This document shows, piece by piece, positions 44,101-53,382 of a stretch of DNA of 64,000 nt (positions are counted from its first letter, which is position 1; every line of letters begins with the position of its first letter). Source of the DNA: a bacterium (GTDB taxonomy: Bacteria; J088; JAWLBW01). Below the pieces are notes generated by a model. That model was not told where the DNA came from. It saw only the letters and a program-made list of their open reading frames with translations, and did no database searches. The DNA lies in assembly GCA_041690355.1 (NCBI GenBank), contig JAWLHK010000024.1, forward strand, positions 1-64,000. The letters run 5' to 3'. The position numbers and the translations under genes are program-made.

Positions 44101-44174
44101 GGCGGCGTAGCCAAGTGGCCAGGCAGAGGTCTGCAAAACCTTGTACCCCAGTTCGAATCTGGGCGCCGCCTCCA
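44101..44174 (+). tRNA. tRNA-Cys (GCA)
   Basis: Acceptor stem GGCGGCG/CGCCGCC, anticodon loop CTGCAAA, GTTCGAATC T-loop, U73 discriminator, encoded CCA. Confidence 0.97.
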
Positions 44175-44180
44175 ATGTCG

Positions 44181-44218
44181 AAGGCCGAAATCCACACGGG
44201 TTTCGGCCTTTTCTTTTT
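44181..44218 (+). terminator. Intrinsic terminator after tRNA-Cys
   Basis: Perfect 10-bp stem AAGGCCGAAA/TTTCGGCCTT followed by T-rich tract. Confidence 0.85.
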
Positions 44219-44323
44219 CCTCCTTCTCCGCTGTTCATCGGAGTGCCCCGGGGCCCGGTGCGCGACCGGTCGTTGTGTCTTGCTGTCCGTCGTTGGCCCA
44301 TCCTGACCGTGAGGAGGGTTCGA

Positions 44324-45922
44324 ATGGCCGACGACACGCCGCTCTGGAGTTCGCTCTCGGGAAAACCCCGCAGCTATCCACGCCTCGAAGGAGACGTCCA
44401 CGTCGACGTGGCGGTGGTCGGGGCCGGCGTGGCCGGCATCATGACCGCCTGGTATCTCAAGCAGGCGGGTGCCCGGGTGGCGCTGGTCGAACGCAACCAT
44501 CTCGTCGCGGGCGAGACGCATCATACGACGGCGCACCTGACCGGGCTCCCCGACGCCGAGTTCTCGCGCCTGCGCCGGGCCTTGGGGAGCACGAAGGCAC
44601 GCGGCGTCTGGGACAGCGAGATGGCCGCCATCGATCTCCTGGAGCACGCCGTCAGGAGGAACAACATCGACTGCGGCTTCGAGCGCGTGCCCGCCGTGAA
44701 GTATGCCCCGACGCACAAGGACGTGCGCAGCCTCGAGCGCGAGATGCGGGCCATGCGCAAGCTCGGCATCGACCTCGAAGAAACGACCGACGTCCCGCTC
44801 CCCCACGCGGCCGCCTTTCGCATTCAGGGGCAGGCGAAGATCAACCCGGTGCGCTTTCTGCGCAGCATCGCCGCCATGATCCCGGGCGACGGGTCGCACG
44901 TCTTCGAACACTCGCCCGTCCACCACGCCGTCAACGGAGTCGTTCGCACGCACGACGGATTCGTGCGTTCAGAGGCCATCGTACTGGCGACCCACTACCC
45001 CTTCGGCGATCTGCGCATCGTGCCGAAACTGCACCCGAGCCTGACGTACGCCATCGCCGTCACCGGTCGTCACCGGCTGCGCAACGAGCTCTATTTCGAC
45101 AACCTCGACCCCTATCACTACATCCGGCTGCACGACCGGTACGTGATCATCGGCGGCGAGGATCACCCGATCGGGACCCCGGCCGCCGGCGAAGAGCACT
45201 GGGCGCGCCTCGTCGAGTTCACGCGGCAGACGGTCATGGAGAACCCCGTCGTTCGCCACCAGTGGTGCGGCGAGGTGCTCGAGACCCTCGACAGCCTCCC
45301 CTACGTCGGGCACCACTCTTCGGCGTCGTCGCGCTATATCGCGACCGGCTTCGCGGGCACCGGAATTACCTGGGGAACGCTGGCCGCGCGCATCAACGCC
45401 GATCTGATTCTCGGCCGCCCGAACGCATTCGCAGACCTCTTCGACCCCGACCGCATCGGGCGGCTGCGCGGCATCCGGCGAGCCGTGCGCTACAACGTCT
45501 CGGTCGCCCATCAACTCGTGCGCGGCTGGAGCCAACCGAAGTCCGACGAGCACATCGATGCGCTTCGCCCGGGCGAAGGAGTCGTCGTGCATCACGGTCT
45601 ACATCCGGTCGCCGTCTCGGTAGACGAGAACGGCGAGGTGCGCGCCGTGTCTGCGGTCTGCACCCACCTGGGCTGCATCGTCGCTTGGAATCCGGCCGCG
45701 AAAACCTGGGACTGCCCTTGCCACGGATCCCGTTACGAGGCCGACGGCGAAGTGCACACCGGGCCCGCCACCCGGCGGCTCGAGCCGGTAGACCTGGATG
45801 AGCTGGGCCCCGACACGCGCCCCCGGGTGCATCTCAAGGAAACCGATCTTCCCGGCGACGACACGCACCCCCCGAAGCAGCCGGGACATCGACCGGCCGC
45901 AAACAAACCTCCGGAGGAGTAA
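44324..45922 (+). CDS. FAD-dependent oxidoreductase with C-terminal Rieske domain (YhfW-like)
   Basis: VVGAGVAG, G.T.HTTAH, ATHYP, D.LPYVG, canonical CTHLGC...DCPCHGS. Confidence 0.92.
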   Translation: MADDTPLWSSLSGKPRSYPRLEGDVHVDVAVVGAGVAGIMTAWYLKQAGARVALVERNHLVAGETHHTTAHLTGLPDAEFSRLRRALGSTKARGVWDSEMAAIDLLEHAVRRNNIDCGFERVPAVKYAPTHKDVRSLEREMRAMRKLGIDLEETTDVPLPHAAAFRIQGQAKINPVRFLRSIAAMIPGDGSHVFEHSPVHHAVNGVVRTHDGFVRSEAIVLATHYPFGDLRIVPKLHPSLTYAIAVTGRHRLRNELYFDNLDPYHYIRLHDRYVIIGGEDHPIGTPAAGEEHWARLVEFTRQTVMENPVVRHQWCGEVLETLDSLPYVGHHSSASSRYIATGFAGTGITWGTLAARINADLILGRPNAFADLFDPDRIGRLRGIRRAVRYNVSVAHQLVRGWSQPKSDEHIDALRPGEGVVVHHGLHPVAVSVDENGEVRAVSAVCTHLGCIVAWNPAAKTWDCPCHGSRYEADGEVHTGPATRRLEPVDLDELGPDTRPRVHLKETDLPGDDTHPPKQPGHRPAANKPPEE

Positions 45923-46207: not shown

Positions 46208-46609
46208 TTACGGCACGCGGTACAGATAGGCCGCAATGTCGCGGGCCTCGGCCTCGGTGAGGCCGAGCGCCGGCATGGCCGTTCCCGGCGCGAACGCCTG
46301 CGGATTGCGCAGCCATCGGACCAGATTGGCCGGCGAATTGGCCAACTGGCCGCCGATGTACATCTGATGGCGGAAGTCGGTCAGCTGCGGGCCGACGCGC
46401 CCGCGCGCCTGTGCAATACCGGGAATGACATGACAGGCGCCGCAGCCGTACTTCACGATCGCATCCCTGCCCCGCCCCACGTCCCCTTCGAGCTCCCAGA
46501 CCGGCTCGGTCGGGTGCGTGCCGCCGCCCCGCAGCCACAGGTGCGCGCTGATGCCGATCAGGGCGACCAGAGCGCCGGCCAGGGTGACCAGGATAGCCCG
46601 CTGTTCCAC
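46208..46609 (-). CDS. Membrane-anchored class I cytochrome c
   Basis: CGACH, GP.L, distal Met PGTAMP. Confidence 0.9.
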   Translation of the reverse strand: MEQRAILVTLAGALVALIGISAHLWLRGGGTHPTEPVWELEGDVGRGRDAIVKYGCGACHVIPGIAQARGRVGPQLTDFRHQMYIGGQLANSPANLVRWLRNPQAFAPGTAMPALGLTEAEARDIAAYLYRVP

Positions 46610-47563
46610 TCAGCCCTCCTCTGCAGGGGAACGCCGCAACGCATCGGCCCGGTCGACCCGCGCGGCAAGGCGGCGCAGATGCGTCGCGAACAACGCCAGG
46701 GCCGCCCCCGCCAGCACGGCCCCCGCCGGCATCCACATGACCATGCCGGCGATCTGCTGATCTTCGAGCGGCGTCCACGTCGAGGCCGAAAGCCGTTGCC
46801 CGTAGGCGCGGTAGAGCGGGCGCGGCGCGAACGCGATCAGCATCCCCAGGGCCGAACCGTGCAGCGAGGTCAGAAAGAGCAGCAGCGCCCCTTCGCTCCC
46901 CGCCGGGCGCCGGCGAGAGACCGGGTCGAGTACGGCGTGCCAGAAGAGCAGCGCCGCCAACAGGAAGACGGCATGCTGCGCTTCGTGCACCCAGGTATTG
47001 AAGAGCGCCGCATCGTACAGGCGCGGGGCGTGCCAGAACCAGATCGCCGCGGCGTAGACGGCCCCGGCCGCCGCCGGATGTCCGGAGAGGGATCTCACCG
47101 TGCGCCATCCGGGACGCGTGAGCCAGCGGCGGGCCAGAAAGCGACGGGCCCGATGCGGCAGGCCCCCGAATATGACCGTGAAGGGGCGTCCGAGCGTCAG
47201 GAGGGGGGGCGCCAGCACGAGCAGCGCGAGGTGCTGCACCATGTGCACCCAGAACAGCGCGGCCCCGAGCCGGTGGATCGGCGAAAGCAGGGCGGCCGCC
47301 AGCAGAAGCCAGCCGGCGAGAAAGCCGGCAACGGCGCCAGGGCCGATGCCGTGGCCCGTGCCGGCGCGGCCCCACAGCCGCCGTACGCCCCACCCGTAGG
47401 CGAACAGCAGGACCAAGAGCAGCGCGACGGGCCAGGGCTCGTACGTCCACCCGTACGACGGCGCCGCGAGCTGGTTCGTATGCGCCGACGCAGACAAAGG
47501 CCATCCCCAGACGACGAGCCCGGAGACGGTGACGGCCGCGCGAGAAAAGGTTCGGCTCAGCAT
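46610..47563 (-). CDS. ctaG: Cytochrome c oxidase assembly factor (caa3-type CtaG)
   Basis: HMVQH, WFWHAP.LY, H..QH, EDQQIAG..MW.P. Confidence 0.9.
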   Translation of the reverse strand: MLSRTFSRAAVTVSGLVVWGWPLSASAHTNQLAAPSYGWTYEPWPVALLLVLLFAYGWGVRRLWGRAGTGHGIGPGAVAGFLAGWLLLAAALLSPIHRLGAALFWVHMVQHLALLVLAPPLLTLGRPFTVIFGGLPHRARRFLARRWLTRPGWRTVRSLSGHPAAAGAVYAAAIWFWHAPRLYDAALFNTWVHEAQHAVFLLAALLFWHAVLDPVSRRRPAGSEGALLLFLTSLHGSALGMLIAFAPRPLYRAYGQRLSASTWTPLEDQQIAGMVMWMPAGAVLAGAALALFATHLRRLAARVDRADALRRSPAEEG

Positions 47564-47961
47564 GCGCGAAGGTAGAAGAAAATGGGAATGCTCTGCACGA
47601 GGATGATCATCAGCCCGGCTGCATCCAGCATCACGCCGAGGCGCGCCGTGTCGTAGCCCGCCGCCGCCGCGATGCCCTCCTCGCGGACGGTCGCCAATTC
47701 GCGCCGGCAGCGGCGCGCGATCATGCCCGCTCCCGCCGCCAGACCGACGGTCGCAACGGTGAGCCCGAGAAGCGCGACCACGACGCCGTTGAGCGGACCG
47801 AGCGCCAAAGCAGGAAACCCCCGCTGACATCCCCACTCGGCGATGTACCAGGCGCCGGCAAGATGGAGCAGCCACGCAACCATCCCGCCGAGCAGGCCGG
47901 CGGCAAGGCGCAGGCGCGACACGCCGTCACCCCCGTGCAGCACGGTACCCTCCTCAGACAT
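47557..47961 (-). CDS. 3-TM membrane protein of oxidase operon
   Basis: Three hydrophobic segments, W.LH and two Cys; overlaps both neighbours. Confidence 0.75.
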   Translation of the reverse strand: MSEEGTVLHGGDGVSRLRLAAGLLGGMVAWLLHLAGAWYIAEWGCQRGFPALALGPLNGVVVALLGLTVATVGLAAGAGMIARRCRRELATVREEGIAAAAGYDTARLGVMLDAAGLMIILVQSIPIFFYLRAC

Positions 47962-50461
47962 AAGCCCCCACGTGCAGTGCCAGGTACAGGGTAACGCCCA
48001 GCGCAGCCGTGAAACCCCAGAGCAGAAAGCCGAGCCGCGTGGCGTTCTCCAGCATCGGCGTGCGGGCGAGAGCGGCGCGACGCGTGAGCCTGAGCACCCC
48101 GAGCGTCCAGATCGTCGCGACCAGGGCGAGCAGGAGATAGGCCGTCGACGGCGCGTACCAGGCGGCCGCGTAGGCGTTGGCCCCGGGAAGAAAAGGGGTC
48201 TGCCAGAGAAGGATTCCGTGGAAAATCAGGAAGCCGCCCCCCGCGGCAAGAGCCATGGCCAGCGGCGCCAGCGGGCTCTGCGACGCGTTCGGCTGCATGC
48301 GGCGCGCGGCCGCGCGCATCGCGACCGCCCCGATCGGCATCAGGAGATAGGCGGCCGCCGGAAGCAGCAGCCCGGGAAGTGGGAGCCCACCCTGCGGCCA
48401 CGCGGCGGAATAGATGCGCAGGTAGAAATAGCTGAACACGAGCACCCCGAAACCCATGCCGAGAGTCGTCAGCGCCCCGATCATGCCCCACCAGCCGGTT
48501 CCGCGTCGGGCGACGAGCGGGAGCCCGGCCGCGAGCGCCGTGCCGCCGGCCTGAATTTTCGCCAGCGTCGCCGGGTGCGGCAAGAGCCAGGCAATCACGG
48601 CCGCGAACAGGCCGATGAGGCCGGCAACGGTGAGGAGGTAAATCTTTACGAGCACTCCGAAAAAGACCAGCAGCAGGGCCAGGGCGGCCGTCAGCGGCTG
48701 CAACGTCGAGCTGGGAAGCCATTGCACCGACTCGGGTTCGCCCGTGAGCACGTCTGTCGCGAGGGTCGCCCGCCATCCGACGGGAGCCCGGTCGAGCGCC
48801 TCCCGCGCCTGCCGCGAAGCTCCCGGCTCTTCCACATTCCCCTCCCAGGCCGGATGACGGCCTCCGACCCGTGGCGGCCGCTCCCAGGCGAAGATGGCGG
48901 GCGGCGACGGCAGGGTCCACTCGAGGCTCCCGCCCCCCCAGGGGTCAGACCCCGCCGGTTCGCCCGCGCGCATGCTGCGCAGGAGATTGACGACGAACAC
49001 GAGCACGCCGAGGGCCATCAGATAGGCGCCTCCGGTCGAAACCAGGTTGTATCCGTCGACGTTCAGCGAAGCCGGATAGCTGTAGACGCGGCGGGGCATG
49101 CCGTACAGCCCCATGATGTGCATCGGAAAGAAGGCGACGTTGAAGCCGATGAAGATGAGCCCGAACGCGATCCGGCCCGCCCCTTCGCTCAGCAGGCGGC
49201 CGGTGAACTTGGGATACCAGTAGGAAATGCCGCCCAGGAGGGGAAAAAGAACCCCGCCGATGATCACGTAGTGAAAGTGCGCCACGACGAAGAACGTGTC
49301 GTGCACCTGCAGATCGAAGGGGACGACGGCCACCATGACCCCCGTCACGCCCCCGGCGACGAAGAGAAAGAGAAACCCGAGCACGTACAGCAGGGGCGTC
49401 TTCAGCGCCGGCCGGCGCCCCCACAGGGTCGCGATCCACGCGAAGACCTGCGCGCCGCTCGCCAGCGCGATCATGAGGCTCGCCCCCGAGAAGAACAGCA
49501 GCGAGAGTTTCGGCAGCCCCGCGGCGAACATGTGGTGCACCCAGAGGCCGAAACTCACGAAGCCGGTGACCACGACCGCCATGACCACCCAGAGGTATCC
49601 GGCGAGCGGCCGCCGCGCGAACGTGGGTACGATCATCGAGACGACCCCCGTGGCGGGCAGGAACATGATGTAGACCTCAGGGTGCCCGAAGAACCAGAAC
49701 AGATGCTGCCAGAGCAGGCTGCTGCCGCCCCCCTGCGGGTCGAAGAACGGCATCCCGAATGCGCGCTCGAGCTCGAGCAGAAGAGTGGCCACGAGCAGCG
49801 TGGTGAACGCGAAGACGATCATGAGTCCCGTCACGAGCATCGTCCACGCAAAGAGCGGCATGCGGTGGAGCGCCATGCCCGGCGCGCGGAACTTCAGGAT
49901 GGTCACGACGATCTCGATGCCGGCCGTGATGCCCCCCACCTCGACGAGGCCGAGCGCGAGCAGCCAGAAGTCGAGACCACGCCCGGAGTAGCGCGTGCCC
50001 GACAGCGGCGTGTACGCGAACCAGCCGGCATCGGGGATGAGGTTCACGAAGAACGTGGCGTAGAAGAGAATGCCTCCGAAAAGAAAGCACCAGTAGCCGA
50101 ATGCGCTCAGGCGGGGAAAGGCGAGATCACGCGCGCCGATCTGCAGCGGCAGCAGGTAGACGGCAAGCCCCTCGACGAACGGCACGGCGAACAGGAACAT
50201 CATCGTCGAGCCGTGCATTGTGAACAGCTCGTTGTAGAGCTGCGGGCCCAGGATGCCGTTCTCGGAAACAGCCAGCTGGGTGCGCATCAGCAGCGCGAGT
50301 ACGCCCCCCAGCAGAAAGAAGACGAACGACGTGACGAGAAACCGCTTGCCGACCGGCTGATTGTTGACGACGGCGAGCCAGCCGACGAAGCCGGGGCGGT
50401 TCTCCCAGGTGTGATCGAAGTCGGACGGCGGCGGGGGCGAGTGACGGCGCGGCATGGTCAC
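47954..50461 (-). CDS. ctaD: Heme-copper oxidase subunit I fused to a degenerate subunit III-like domain
   Basis: TMHG, WFFGHPEVY, LWVHHMF, AHFHY, GMPRR; about 250 extra aa with several TM. Confidence 0.95.
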   Translation of the reverse strand: MTMPRRHSPPPPSDFDHTWENRPGFVGWLAVVNNQPVGKRFLVTSFVFFLLGGVLALLMRTQLAVSENGILGPQLYNELFTMHGSTMMFLFAVPFVEGLAVYLLPLQIGARDLAFPRLSAFGYWCFLFGGILFYATFFVNLIPDAGWFAYTPLSGTRYSGRGLDFWLLALGLVEVGGITAGIEIVVTILKFRAPGMALHRMPLFAWTMLVTGLMIVFAFTTLLVATLLLELERAFGMPFFDPQGGGSSLLWQHLFWFFGHPEVYIMFLPATGVVSMIVPTFARRPLAGYLWVVMAVVVTGFVSFGLWVHHMFAAGLPKLSLLFFSGASLMIALASGAQVFAWIATLWGRRPALKTPLLYVLGFLFLFVAGGVTGVMVAVVPFDLQVHDTFFVVAHFHYVIIGGVLFPLLGGISYWYPKFTGRLLSEGAGRIAFGLIFIGFNVAFFPMHIMGLYGMPRRVYSYPASLNVDGYNLVSTGGAYLMALGVLVFVVNLLRSMRAGEPAGSDPWGGGSLEWTLPSPPAIFAWERPPRVGGRHPAWEGNVEEPGASRQAREALDRAPVGWRATLATDVLTGEPESVQWLPSSTLQPLTAALALLLVFFGVLVKIYLLTVAGLIGLFAAVIAWLLPHPATLAKIQAGGTALAAGLPLVARRGTGWWGMIGALTTLGMGFGVLVFSYFYLRIYSAAWPQGGLPLPGLLLPAAAYLLMPIGAVAMRAAARRMQPNASQSPLAPLAMALAAGGGFLIFHGILLWQTPFLPGANAYAAAWYAPSTAYLLLALVATIWTLGVLRLTRRAALARTPMLENATRLGFLLWGFTAALGVTLYLALHVGAYV

Positions 50462-51451
50462 TTACTCCAGCATCTCGAGGTAGTCGACCAGGGCGTGCAG
50501 GTCGACCGGCGAAAGATAGGTGGGCGGCATGAGGTTGCCCGGCTTGATCGCCTGGGGATTCGCGATCCATCCCATCAGGCTGCCGCGCGTGTTGGGGAGC
50601 GTGCCCGCCCCGAGGGTCAGGCGCGAACCGATGTGCGTGAGATCGGGGCCGATATCCCCTGCTGCCGGCGTTCCGGCGATGGCGTGGCAACCGGCGCAGC
50701 CGGCTTCGCCGAAGACATCCTTTCCCCTGCGCTGCGCCTCGGTCCGGGGCGCGGGTGTGGGGGCCAGCCGCGCGCGCACCCAGGCATCGAATTCCGCGTG
50801 CGGCAGGGCCACGACCTCGAAGGCCATGTGCGCATGCTGCAGTCCGCAGAATTCGGCGCACTGACCGCGGAACAAGCCCGGCCGGCCGGCCTGCAGGGTC
50901 AGCGCCGTGTCGTGGTCGGGGAGCAGGTCCATCTTGCCGTGCAGCGCGGGCACCCAGAAGCTGTGAATGACGTCGGCCGAGCGGAGGCGAACGCGAACGG
51001 GAACGCCGACGGGGATGTGCAGTTCGTTCGCCGTCACGATCCCCTGCTCGGGATAGCGAACGGCCCACCACCACCGGTACCCCTCGACCTCGACGGTCAG
51101 TCCGGGTTCGGGCTCGCGCAGGCGCACCGTGGCGATCACGGTCATGATCATGAGGCCGATGAGGATGACCGCCGGGATGGCGATGCCCCCCACCACGATG
51201 AACACGGTCTGCCGTTCGGCGTCGCCGTGGCCGGCCTCGTCCCGGGGTCCCCGGCGCACAATGGCCACGAGCGCGAGGACGGTAACGAGAAGCAGAACCG
51301 CCGTGGCGATCACGAACATGAAGTTGCCGAGGGTGAGCGCGTTCTTCGCTGCCGCTGACGCCGGATCAAGCACCGATTGGATCCGGTTGCCGCACCCGGT
51401 GCCGGCGAGCGCAAGGGCCATCCCTCGACGAAGCGCGCCGCGTGCCATCAC
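50462..51451 (-). CDS. coxB: Cytochrome c oxidase subunit II with fused cytochrome c (caa3-type)
   Basis: Lipoprotein-like GTGC, DVIHSFWVP, CAEFCGLQHAHM (CuA), CAGCH. Confidence 0.95.
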   Translation of the reverse strand: MMARGALRRGMALALAGTGCGNRIQSVLDPASAAAKNALTLGNFMFVIATAVLLLVTVLALVAIVRRGPRDEAGHGDAERQTVFIVVGGIAIPAVILIGLMIMTVIATVRLREPEPGLTVEVEGYRWWWAVRYPEQGIVTANELHIPVGVPVRVRLRSADVIHSFWVPALHGKMDLLPDHDTALTLQAGRPGLFRGQCAEFCGLQHAHMAFEVVALPHAEFDAWVRARLAPTPAPRTEAQRRGKDVFGEAGCAGCHAIAGTPAAGDIGPDLTHIGSRLTLGAGTLPNTRGSLMGWIANPQAIKPGNLMPPTYLSPVDLHALVDYLEMLE

Positions 51452-52902
51452 CGCTGCTCCCGCTCGAAGGTCTGCGCCACGAGAACGTACTCCACCAGCG
51501 CCCCGAGTTCGGCATCCGTAAGCCGCCCCTCGTAGGCAGGCATGGGCGTTCCCCGCTCGGGCTCGAGCACGAATTCGCGAATCTCCTTGCGGCTCAACCG
51601 CTCGTCACTGCGGGCGAAATCGGGGCCGACCTTGCGCCCATCGCCGGCCACCGCATGACAGCTCGTGCACCCCTTGTCGGCGAAGAGCTGCCGGCCACGC
51701 TCGGCCAGTTCGGTCAACTCGATACCGGGCGGCACCGTTGGGGGCTGCTCGCGTGGCCAGCCGGTCCACGGAGACTGGATGCGAATTTCGGACAGGACAA
51801 CGAGCAGCGCGGCGGTGACCACGATGGCCCCCGAGAAAATCGGCCGCTTGCGCACGCCGCGCCAGGGTGAGCGATCGAGCAACGGCAGGAGCAGCAGAAA
51901 TCCCAGCACGAAAAGCGGAAGCAGCACGACGATCGGCACCGCCAGCCAGGGCGGGAGCAGCGCAATCATGGTGCTGTACCAGGCGTACCACCACTCCTCC
52001 ATGGGGAACACCGTTTCGACGAGATTCGCTTCGGGGTTCGGCAGGGGCGGACCCAGGATCACGGCCAGGGCCACGGCCACGAGAAAGACGACGAGTGCCA
52101 TGCCCCCCGACTTGGCCGTCGTTTCGGGAAAGAACATCTCGCCGTATTTGTCGGAATGTTTCTGTTCGTCATAGAGCCTGCGCTGCGCCTCGGCCGACGG
52201 CACCGGCTCGCGCCGCTCGCGCAGCGAGGTCGTGCCGTGCAGCACGACGAGATACAGGTGCCATCCGGCCAGCGCGAGCAGCAGCAAGGGGATCATCACG
52301 ACGTGCACGCTGAAGAACCGGCTCAGGGTGCGCGCGCCGATTTCGGTGCCCCCCTGCACGATGATCGCCAGTTCGTCGCCCAGCAGCGGAACCCGGTTGA
52401 ACATGTGCAGCACGACGCGGATGGCGTACATCGCCCGGGTATCCCAGCGCAGCACGTATCCGGTAAAGGCCATCGTCAATACGAGCACGAACATGCCCAC
52501 GCCGACGTAGTACGTCCCCTCTCGAGGCGACTTGTAGCCGCCGACGAGCAGGATGCGGAACAGGTGTGAGAAGAGCATGACGACCATGAGGCCGGCCGTC
52601 CAGTAGTGCAGTCCGCGAATGAAGTTCCCCAGCGGCTGCTCGCGCGTGATGGCGACGACGCTGTCGAAGGCCGTGTCGGGCGAGGGGGAGTAGGTGAGCG
52701 TCATGAGGGCGCCGGTGGCGACCATGACGCCGAGCAGGGTCAGGAGGGTGGCGCCATCGCCGTAGTACCACGATCCCTTGGCCACCCTGCGATCGAGAAA
52801 GTGCCGCCAGACCGGACCCAGCCCGAACCGGTCGACGACCCACCGGCGGCTGCGTTCTGCCTGCTGCAACGCCCGTCTGCGAATGGCCGAAAGCACATGC
52901 AC
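51448..52902 (-). CDS. Cytochrome b (unsplit) fused to C-terminal cytochrome c
   Basis: RGLHYW...HLFR, FTGY.L.WD, TLSRFFSVH...H heme ligands; CTSCH...MP. Confidence 0.93.
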   Translation of the reverse strand: MHVLSAIRRRALQQAERSRRWVVDRFGLGPVWRHFLDRRVAKGSWYYGDGATLLTLLGVMVATGALMTLTYSPSPDTAFDSVVAITREQPLGNFIRGLHYWTAGLMVVMLFSHLFRILLVGGYKSPREGTYYVGVGMFVLVLTMAFTGYVLRWDTRAMYAIRVVLHMFNRVPLLGDELAIIVQGGTEIGARTLSRFFSVHVVMIPLLLLALAGWHLYLVVLHGTTSLRERREPVPSAEAQRRLYDEQKHSDKYGEMFFPETTAKSGGMALVVFLVAVALAVILGPPLPNPEANLVETVFPMEEWWYAWYSTMIALLPPWLAVPIVVLLPLFVLGFLLLLPLLDRSPWRGVRKRPIFSGAIVVTAALLVVLSEIRIQSPWTGWPREQPPTVPPGIELTELAERGRQLFADKGCTSCHAVAGDGRKVGPDFARSDERLSRKEIREFVLEPERGTPMPAYEGRLTDAELGALVEYVLVAQTFEREQR

Positions 52903-52908
52903 GCTCGT

Positions 52909-53382
52909 TCACGTCATGGGTGGCAGGGATAGGAGATCGATCTCGAGAATATCGTCACGGATGCGGTTCGCGTACCGGTAGAGCGGGCGGCTCGGGGGCC
53001 CGGCCCGGGGGTTGCCTTCCTTGTCGAAGATCCCCCCATGGCAGGGGCAGAAGAACCACTCGCTCCCCGGGTCCCAGTTGACCGGGCAGCTGAGATCGGT
53101 GCAATTGCGCGAGTAGACCACGGTTTCGGCCGCCGTGGGACGCCACACGAAGACCGCCTTTTCCCGCAAGGCGCTGGCCTCATCCCCACGGGGGACCGGA
53201 ACGACGGCGCGGGTCACGGGACCGACGGGAAAGGAAGCGAGCGGCCCCACGGGCTGCCACCACTCCTTGCGTCGCTCGAGCGCCGGCGCGATTCCAAAAA
53301 TGAGCGCGGGAATTCCGAGGACGCCGGCCGTGACGACCCCGATACCCTGCACGAAGCCGATGAGCAGTTTTCGCCGTTCCAC
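52909..53382 (-). CDS. Rieske-type Fe-S subunit of bc complex with atypical box I
   Basis: Tat-like ERRKLL + TM, CTDLSC, CPCHGG, GPP.RPL. Confidence 0.9.
   Translation of the reverse strand: MERRKLLIGFVQGIGVVTAGVLGIPALIFGIAPALERRKEWWQPVGPLASFPVGPVTRAVVPVPRGDEASALREKAVFVWRPTAAETVVYSRNCTDLSCPVNWDPGSEWFFCPCHGGIFDKEGNPRAGPPSRPLYRYANRIRDDILEIDLLSLPPMT

Follow-up and report, generated by a model that had tools for sequence, protein, structure and literature searches.

Whether an A-type haem-copper oxidase (HCO) can work without its K channel, and by what path its protons would then travel, is the question raised by a gene for a fused oxidase subunit I+III (ctaD-ctaE; product CoxI+III) in a window of 64 000 nucleotides, the whole stretch of DNA analysed (contig JAWLHK010000024.1, positions 1 to 64 000, of the bacterial assembly GCA_041690355.1; GTDB lineage Bacteria; J088; JAWLBW01). 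An earlier interpretation made from the letters of the DNA (the sequence-only reading) had described the product as an A1-type oxidase that lacks the K-channel lysine and has an altered D channel, and had proposed either an alternative proton route or a non-pumping enzyme. The observation is real and, to judge from the conservation described below, the substitutions appear to be under selection. They mark a group with Gln at position 362 and Glu at position 198, which is best explained as a sub-clade of its own among the A-family HCOs, monophyletic and spread by horizontal transfer. The explanation that we favour, and to which we give about an even chance of being right, is a functional one-channel A-type oxidase, whose protons travel along a D-type route lined with carboxylates while the K route no longer works.

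The CoxI+III open reading frame (ORF) matched the Pfam profile COX1 (PF00115) with an E-value of 9.3e-146 (486.5 bits, cut-off 34.8) and passed the NCBIfam model TIGR02891 (CtaD_CoxA) by a narrow margin (678.6 bits, cut-off 670.75). An AlphaFold2 model made with an input alignment of 50 relatives (predicted local distance difference test, pLDDT, 87.6; predicted template modelling score, pTM, 0.91) had 2yev_A as its top full-length Foldseek match, with template modelling scores of 0.83 (query-normalised) and 0.89 (target-normalised) over 829 columns at 30 % identity, and phmmer related CoxI+III to 2yev with an E-value of 3.1e-118. As this fused I/III match spans the whole length, the C-terminal 290 residues were assigned to a subunit III domain; the subunit III profile PF00510 gave no match in the query CoxI+III, although it was listed for some close relatives and was matched by locus L038.

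All six His ligands were present by alignment to canonical enzymes (H81, H258, H307, H308, H393 and H395 in the numbering of the 833-residue form), together with the cross-link Tyr (Y262, equivalent to Y288), D132, E286, S299, R481/R482 and the Mg-site His-Asp. The residues of the predicted O2-reducing centre show it to be canonical. Type A1 was reportedly defined by Pereira et al. in 2001 through the motif xGHPEV, with its Glu in helix VI; the query reads FGHPEVY, and the A1 label given earlier holds. CoxII, encoded next to CoxI+III, has a CuA site plus a fused C-terminal cytochrome c domain, as in caa3 oxidases. The marks of nitric oxide (NO) reductases (no cross-link Tyr, altered CuB/FeB site) were not found, Y288 and the three CuB His being present, and the B family was not indicated either, with E286 present, the CoxII Glu absent and a match to ba3 of only E ~1e-11. 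We infer that CoxI+III is the fused subunit of an A-family oxidase of the caa3 type and that the enzyme is probably active.

Positions in the proton channels are given in R. sphaeroides numbering, transferred via a mycobacterial CtaD structure and the canonical paralogue of the same genome rather than by direct alignment to 1M56; the R. sphaeroides numbers and motif strings are those that we take to be standard. The HMMER alignment to mycobacterial CtaD (7rh5_R, E 4.2e-133) was ungapped around the motifs and paired query with reference as 'lmialaSGaQvfaW'/'liavpTGiKffnW', 'dlafprlS'/'dvafprlN', 'glaVyllp'/'gfaNlvlp' and 'agiEivvt'/'ggvNmitt'. In a MAFFT alignment the canonical A1 paralogue (contig C14, L001) carried K, T, N, N, N and Y at the columns corresponding to 362, 359, the three Asn and Y33. 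The replacement of K362 by Gln and of T359 by Ser, claimed in the sequence-only reading, was confirmed by both alignments and by a codon check (Table 1), and the changes of N139 to Ser, N121 to Val, N207 to Glu and Y33 to Phe (VGKRF in the query, IGxxY in canonical enzymes) were each reproduced by both alignments. Alignment and codons also agreed that D132, E286 and the cross-link Tyr are kept. Formal alignment could have revealed conserved equivalents of K362, N121, N139 and N207, but the substitutions stood in every alignment made. An alignment artefact was ruled out, HMMER against the PDB chain, MAFFT with 120 database matches and the paralogue, and MAFFT with 80 genome loci giving the same residue pairs.

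The D channel proved to be more thoroughly rebuilt than the earlier description of it as altered had conveyed. That description was right about the Asn triad, but the Ser lining is lost too (position 197 is Val and positions 200, 201 and 142 are Gly), and Glu stands at 117, 198 and 207 (or, in some relatives, 204), with D132 and E286 still in place. S197, S200, S201, position 204 and N207 are positions that we take to line the channel. Glu198, which the sequence-only reading had not picked out, is residue 172 of the query, within the helix 159–188 that forms transmembrane helix (TM) 4 of the AlphaFold2 model. Of the K channel, neither the helix VIII Lys nor the subunit II entry Glu is present, and S299 and Y288 are kept. 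The clade alignment was also examined for a compensating Lys, another finding that the sequence-only reading had named as able to overturn it. No such Lys was found: when ionisable residues with at least 80 % conservation in one or other subclade were listed, TM6–TM9 contained no Lys, Arg or His particular to the clade. Basic residues peculiar to the clade occurred only near the D entrance, namely an Arg adjoining the Y33 position and an Arg preceding D132, both conserved in the query's group; the second of these was also present in half of the canonical set.

The conservation of these states was followed in two samples, the 120 best database matches (query included; the others 52–63 % identical to it), whose named members belong to Planctomycetes, Phycisphaerae and Verrucomicrobia, and 80 loci from a scan of one genome per species. 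Among the 120 matches, position 362 was Gln in 119 and Met in one, position 207 was Glu in 119 and Asp in one, and position 121 was never Asn (Leu 93, Val 15, Met 4, Ile 4, Ala 4). Position 139 was Thr in 103, Ser in 13 and Ala in four, and position 359 was Ser in 113, Thr in six and Ala in one. D132, Y288, Glu198 and the TM2 Glu (position ~117) were found in all 120, and position 286 was Glu in 115 and Asp in five. The 80 loci split into 44 with both Gln362 and Glu198, 35 with Lys362, 33 of which had Gly198, and one unrelated frame. Glu198 was present in all 44 clade loci and is, in these alignments, the sole invariant of the clade besides Gln362. E286 was kept in 43 of the 44, Glu207 in 36 and the TM2 Glu in 32 (Gln in six more), and position 359 was Ser or Thr in 34 and Ala or Asn in 10. 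An acid at either 204 or 207 was found in 41 loci; that it shifts and yet is present suggests selection for a channel-facing carboxylate.

Five Burkholderiales loci (L024, L025, L027, L041 and L042) have the lower TM4 acid at 204 and not at 207 (LLEA or LLDA), and three of the five are among the four loci linked to pyrroloquinoline quinone (PQQ) dehydrogenases. A Gly-to-Asp mutant of position 204 is known in P. denitrificans. The 44 loci form two subclades: in that of the query (25 loci) D132 is kept and position 139 is Ser, Thr or Gly, and in the second (19 loci) position 132 is Ser, Asn or Ala in 15 and N139 is kept. In three loci (L019, L022 and L030) an acid is absent at 132, 204 and 207.

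The partner subunit has changed as well. The CoxII TM2 lacks the entry Glu of LEIxWT, as the sequence-only reading had noted, with Ile or Val at that position. No acid occurred in this column in any of 40 clade CoxII sequences (39 loci and the query), which had V in 19, L in eight, A, I and W in three each and F, G, M and K in one each; canonical CoxII had Glu in all 26 sequences in which the helix was aligned, four further canonical rows being incomplete. Given Gln362 in subunit I and the loss of the CoxII Glu, both ionisable K-pathway residues have been lost together, in two polypeptides.

A FastTree phylogeny of 83 rows was rooted on a B-type-like paralogue from the genome; in it, one side of a branch with a Shimodaira–Hasegawa-like support of 94 held the 45 rows with Gln362. 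The rows nearest to the query were sequences of Opitutales, Oligoflexus and Bythopirellula, which indicates horizontal spread. The 44 clade loci span eight phyla: Pseudomonadota (36 loci, including 19 alpha, 13 beta and two gamma), Gemmatimonadota (two), and Verrucomicrobiota, Planctomycetota, Bdellovibrionota, Acidobacteriota, Rokuibacteriota and Chloroflexota with a single locus each. Cultured genera in the clade include Mesorhizobium, Devosia, Variovorax, Delftia, Achromobacter, Bosea, Microvirga, Paraburkholderia and Caballeronia. The phylum of the query genome is poorly sampled, with one genome of the same family and three of the same phylum among 40 relatives; the same-family genome (G001) has an orthologue 59 % identical to the query and with the same signature. 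A tblastn search of plasmids located a copy in Sinorhizobium meliloti, on pSymB; it shares 46 % identity with the query and carries the full signature, with E117, V121, D132, S139, E198, E207, E286, Y288, S299, S359 and Q362. Because the same states mark one clade, the substitutions are not private drift.

Absence of the K lysine is less unusual than the sequence-only reading had implied: A-type oxidases without it are already published as a general phenomenon, and the loss recurred in our own wider sample. A search with the query of 1.84 billion representatives at 50 % identity gave 19 242 matches, and the states at positions 198 and 362 were scored in the best 150 of them. These comprised G/K in 53, E/Q in 25, Gln362 with 198 uncovered in 18 fragments and Glu198 with 362 uncovered in five, along with several further K-less combinations. 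The 100 full-length rows of these 150 were placed in an unrooted, midpoint-drawn FastTree phylogeny, in which the query fell within a starred clade of 34 rows, none of them with Lys362. In 29 of the 34 (support 99), position 198 was Glu (24), Gln (three) or Ser or Gly (two) and the Asn triad was never complete, and the five rows beside them kept N121/D132/N139/N207, with Gly198 in three of the five and Q, A or V at 362. As this five-row branch lacks the Lys yet keeps the D-channel residues, K loss looks separable from D remodelling; that K loss came first is suggested, the unrooted FastTree giving only a hint of the order of events. The Lys label changed nine times on the tree and at least seven of these changes were forced by the starred branches, so that K loss is recurrent in the A family.

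Two smaller groups in this tree depart from the pattern at the active site. Three of the five rows just described (P0131, P0150 and P0209) have Trp at E286, no Lys362 and an otherwise canonical D channel, with Ser121 in P0209. Some rows of the Glu198 clade, among them P0137, P0138, P0159, P0168, P0216 and P0251, are without E286, without the cross-link Tyr or without both (Y288 being replaced, for instance, by F or H), and these representatives may be derivatives that no longer reduce oxygen.

For the one-channel oxidase that we prefer, the mechanism would be as follows. The K route would no longer conduct, and substrate protons, plus any that are pumped, would enter by way of D132 and pass E207, E117 and E198 to reach E286, with E198, just below E286, serving as a second internal proton relay. 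The term one-channel follows from the combination of a non-conducting K route with the passage of all protons through the D-type route. A CtaG gene in the operon and a haem A synthase gene elsewhere in the genome (C14:27763-28593) were counted in favour of a functional oxidase. Of the two outcomes proposed in the sequence-only reading, the alternative route fits the pattern, in the form of a remodelled D-type route; neither pumping nor its coupling stoichiometry can be predicted from sequence.

Several observations weigh against this explanation. Substitutions of K362 nearly inactivate canonical enzymes, and we know of no engineered D-channel change that rescues them. The placement of E198, which would face the lumen near E286, was deduced from helical periodicity relative to S197, S200, S201 and N207 and from its mid-helix place. 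Position 132 is Asn, Ser or Ala in 15 of the 44 loci, all in the second subclade, and in the three loci without an acid at 132, 204 or 207 the D entrance looks closed, so that another entry must exist there. The association between loss of K362 and loss of G198 was not significant once relatedness was taken into account (raw table 47/44/7/2; seven independent pairs, sign test p ~0.125). The same neutral positions at the D entrance, in the 15 loci and the three, speak for an arrangement that we think unlikely, in which a K-type route stays alive as an uncharged wire of Ser, Gln, Tyr and water, the D region is partly or wholly closed, and the enzyme resembles the B type in that it has a single channel and pumps less. 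Thr and Ser suffice at the K-pathway positions of B-family enzymes; the clade retains S299 and Y288, has Ser or Thr at position 359 in 34 of the 44 loci, and carries a Gln that is able to hydrogen-bond water. In the table of PMC8239418 the row for ba3 indeed shows T and S at these positions, but according to the same table B-type enzymes keep the subunit II entry Glu, which is absent from all 40 clade CoxII sequences. Moreover, position 359 is Ala or Asn in the remaining 10 loci; 43 of the 44 loci and 115 of the 120 matches retain E286, a residue absent from B-type enzymes, alongside the invariant E198; and the query sequence is far from ba3 (E ~1e-11) when compared with aa3 (1e-133).

The coupling of a one-channel oxidase is a separate matter, and a naturally uncoupled, non-pumping enzyme, which would draw cytoplasmic protons for water, remain electrogenic and act as a fast electron sink, is compatible with the explanation that we favour; we regard it as possible but rather doubtful. 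The excerpts of PMC7196763 describe N139D and N207D mutants (N131D and N199D in P. denitrificans) in which pumping is abolished and turnover is near or above that of the wild type, and a D132N/N139D double mutant that pumps again, the number and position of D-channel carboxylates controlling proton delivery and coupling in these point mutants. Such mutants cut both ways. By analogy, the query's subgroup, with Glu207 and two more Glu, could be uncoupled, whereas the second subgroup is reminiscent of the recoupled double mutant, having a neutral residue at 132 and its acid at 207 or 204. A non-pumping enzyme would be in keeping with the periplasmic dehydrogenases that adjoin clade operons (PQQ dehydrogenase at four of 15 loci, a molybdopterin oxidoreductase at one, and the XoxF3 clusters considered below) and with the canonical A1 oxidase retained in the genome, but the conserved Arg by Y33 and the Arg before D132 may offset the added charge, and the pattern is conserved across eight phyla. 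It is very improbable that the carboxylate channel conducts some other cation, such as Na+, which would make the oxidase cation-coupled or Na+-motive: one route is lined by four to five acidic residues, and a gene of the Na+/Ca2+-exchanger family lies between coxII and coxI+III in S. meliloti pSymB and in Devosia, but E286 and proton-type chemistry are conserved and the window has no exchanger. Hardly any weight is given to a decaying or non-oxygen-reducing paralogue (a pseudo-enzyme or NO reductase) or to an artefact of alignment or sequencing. Some rows of the wider K-less clade, such as the six named above, lack E286 and/or Y288, but in the query the ORF is intact, all metal ligands and the Tyr are present and the operon has CtaG and a CuA-type CoxII; 119 of 120 relatives, no more than 52–63 % identical, carry these residues as well, and three independent alignments agree.

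The oxidase forms the terminal part of an operon of seven tightly packed genes, in the order Rieske, cytochrome b-c, CoxII-c, CoxI+III, small ORF, CtaG and cytochrome c (Table 1). In the cytochrome b-c fusion a b6-like part is followed by further membrane helices and then by a c-type haem domain. The haem domains on cytochrome b and on CoxII are predicted to give a fully wired quinol-to-O2 chain in one operon, which is best explained as encoding a self-contained quinol-to-O2 branch. Weakly conserved counterparts of the 134-residue ORF occupy the same place in four related loci (19–30 % identity), and it may be a small oxidase subunit. The listed CtaG ORF overlaps this ORF, and its true start is therefore probably near 47556. 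The operon is flanked on one side by a divergent DUF2254 gene and, downstream, by a plus-strand gene convergent with its last gene. This downstream gene encodes a DAO-family oxidoreductase dependent on flavin adenine dinucleotide (FAD), fused to a canonical C-terminal Rieske domain; its start must lie further downstream than listed, because the listed start overlaps a tRNA-Cys gene. A look-up of expression listed no RNA data set for 47954-51451.

Table 1. Features of the CoxI+III locus and its surroundings (positions in the window; residue numbers as in R. sphaeroides)
Feature	Position	Strand	Remarks
tRNA-Cys	44101..44174	plus	only RNA found by Rfam and ARAGORN over the window
FAD-dependent oxidoreductase–Rieske fusion	44141-45922	plus	DAO family
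Monohaem cytochrome c	46208..46609	minus	final operon gene
Caa3_CtaG copper-insertion factor	46610..47875	minus	PF09678, E 1.4e-53, residues 159-401
134-residue membrane ORF	47557..47961	minus	no family match
ctaD-ctaE fusion, oxidase subunit I+III	47954..50461	minus	835 residues from GTG; 833 residues from ATG at 50455
Gln at K-pathway lysine K362	49448..49450	minus	CAG
Ser at T359	49457-49459	minus	codon located
HPEVY stretch of GHPEVY	49670..49684	minus	CuB His, E286, cross-link Tyr
FGHPEVY	49670-49690	minus	type A1 motif
Y288, kept	49670-49672	minus	
E286, kept	49676-49678	minus	
Glu at N207, D-pathway neck	49913..49915	minus	GAG
Glu at position 198, mid TM4	49940..49942	minus	GAG
TM2-TM3 loop	50105..50161	minus	contains positions 121, 132 and 139
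Ser at N139	50105-50107	minus	
D132, kept	50126-50128	minus	
Val at N121	50159-50161	minus	
Glu in TM2, one turn above N121 (~117)	50171..50173	minus	GAG
Phe at Y33	50339-50341	minus	codon located
CoxII with C-terminal cytochrome c domain	50462..51451	minus	PF00116 and PF00034; CuA site CAEFCGLQHAHM; CAGCH
CoxII TM2	51173-51202	minus	FIVVGGIAIP; no K-pathway entry Glu
Cytochrome b (b6-like N-terminal part) with C-terminal cytochrome c domain	51448..52902	minus	484 residues
Rieske-type iron-sulfur subunit	52909..53382	minus	box I CTDLSC, box II CPCHGG

The Rieske protein of the operon is itself a variant. Its box I differs from the usual CTHLGC in that Asp replaces the first His ligand of the [2Fe-2S] cluster, and alignment to the T. 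thermophilus Rieske protein 3fou_A placed the Asp on the column of that ligand; box II is intact, and the window's other Rieske domain is canonical. Asp was found at this position in all 120 best matches (the protein itself included; the others 55–69 % identical) and also in the Oligoflexus operon L007, and at least 18 of these matches have a longest contig of equal length to that of a CoxI+III match, which suggests that the two lie on the same contigs. The variant is predicted to hold a Cys2-His-Asp cluster of altered potential. A literature search for an Asp-variant Rieske protein turned up nothing.

Neighbouring genes were scanned at 15 clade loci. PQQ dehydrogenase genes flank L017, L024, L038 and L041, and CtaG was found at seven loci and a molybdopterin oxidoreductase, ActD and a Rieske/cytochrome b pair at one each; L007 shares the Rieske/cytochrome b arrangement of the window. 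The exchanger gene (L092, 5853-6926, in S. meliloti pSymB; L014, 6911-7975, in Devosia nitrariae) abuts ctaD and shares one base with it; as a general partner of the oxidase it was rejected, tblastn having found the gene in two of 92 loci. The query genome holds five HCO subunit I genes (L001, L003, L004 and L005 on contigs C14, C3 and C1, plus the query), the others being the canonical A1 oxidase, a cbb3 oxidase in the form of a CcoN-CcoO fusion (754 residues) and two distant HCOs (572 and 502 residues), for which no equivalog model scored above its cut-off.

The need for two proton pathways and the control of pumping by the D channel have so far been approached almost only through point mutants of three model enzymes, and the clade is a large, conserved natural K-less variant with carboxylates at positions whose mutation uncouples or recouples the pump, found in genetically tractable hosts (S. 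meliloti pSymB, Variovorax, Mesorhizobium and Paraburkholderia). It could be used to test why A-type oxidases normally need two channels, is directly testable and is of bioenergetic interest for that reason. If it proved to pump in the ordinary way, textbooks, which hold K362 to be indispensable, would need revision. We also put forward, tentatively and as the less probable extension of the one-channel explanation, a third A-family channel design, in which a ladder of Glu (207/204, 117 and 198) would replace the Asn-gated D channel and the K channel, Glu198 would be an obligatory donor together with E286, and operons of the Planctomycetes–Verrucomicrobia–Chlamydiae (PVC) type would pair this oxidase with a Cys2-His-Asp Rieske quinol module. 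If this were true, two channels would not be required for O2 reduction by A-type enzymes, and bacteria that can be cultured, S. meliloti among them, would harbour natural 'uncoupled' and 'recoupled' variants.

No description of the Gln362/Glu198 signature was found in the literature, the ctaD of S. meliloti pSymB included, with the qualification that Degli Esposti 2020 (BBA) may bear on D-channel variants. The Gln362/Glu198/Glu207/Glu117 design, its breadth, the co-variation of CoxII and its presence in S. meliloti appear to be undescribed. Operons that correspond to those of the clade are the XoxF3-cox-ctaG-cytochrome c clusters of Acidobacteria, Gemmatimonadetes and Verrucomicrobia presented in the excerpts of PMC10875860 (BMC Biol 2024), passages that contain nothing on oxidase proton channels; the operon of the window carries a Rieske/cytochrome b module instead. 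In soil bacteria the clade oxidase is the neighbour of PQQ dehydrogenases of the XoxF3 type, so that estimates of how much energy these pathways yield depend in part on its coupling ratio.

Among the closest published counterparts are the K-less oxidases of Degli Esposti et al. (bioRxiv 10.1101/2020.03.01.968255; PMC8239418), whose available sections report A-family cytochrome c oxidase (COX) COX1/COX2 pairs without K354 and E78 in acidophilic Fe oxidisers, Thioclava, Elusimicrobia, Methylacidiphilum and Bacteriovorax. The COX of Ferrigenium straubiae is likewise K-less, according to the portion available of bioRxiv 10.64898/2026.01.22.701106. Like the query's clade, the enzymes of Degli Esposti et al. 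combine an intact active site with loss of the Lys in subunit I and of the Glu in subunit II. They differ in other respects: in the ~85 bacterial A-family COX1 rows of the PMC8239418 table K354 is replaced by I, L, V, F, M, A or Thr, never by Gln, and in the sections available the D channel is reported as unchanged and many of the proteins as having two extra N-terminal helices, whereas in the query the residue is Gln, the D channel is altered and additional N-terminal helices are absent (the first long helix starts at residue 32). By the account in those sections, COX1-3 fusion proteins were left out of the study as long branches. A row 'subtype a COX13 fused' in the table is scored 'K-channel yes' and may refer to the K-bearing group of 805–847 residues seen among our best 150 matches, or may include the query's clade.

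Among structurally characterized enzymes, Thermus caa3 is of type A2, with a Tyr-Ser motif in place of E286. The T. thermophilus enzyme (2YEV) has the same architecture as the query, an I/III fusion with a CoxII-cytochrome c, but keeps its K channel ('Thermus COX13 fused: K-channel yes' in the PMC8239418 table), where the query has Gln362, GHPEVY and a Glu-rich D region. Canonical A1 aa3 oxidases (1M56, P. denitrificans, 7RH5) are 38–42 % identical to the query by Foldseek and have in common with it the six His, E286, Y288, S299 and R481/R482; the query replaces K362, T359, N121, N139, N207, S197/S200/S201, G198 and the CoxII entry Glu. The B-family ba3 enzyme of T. thermophilus, cited in the excerpts of PMC11214002 as evidence that one Lys-free proton channel can serve an O2-reducing HCO, has as its single channel the analogue of the K channel and lacks both the D channel and E286, whereas the query keeps E286 and a D-type route and is without the K entry Glu. 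The N139D, N207D and D132N/N139D mutants of R. sphaeroides and P. denitrificans place carboxylates at the Asn neck of the D channel, as the clade does; the engineered mutants keep K362, G198 and the Ser lining, whereas the natural clade dispenses with the K pathway and adds E117 and E198.

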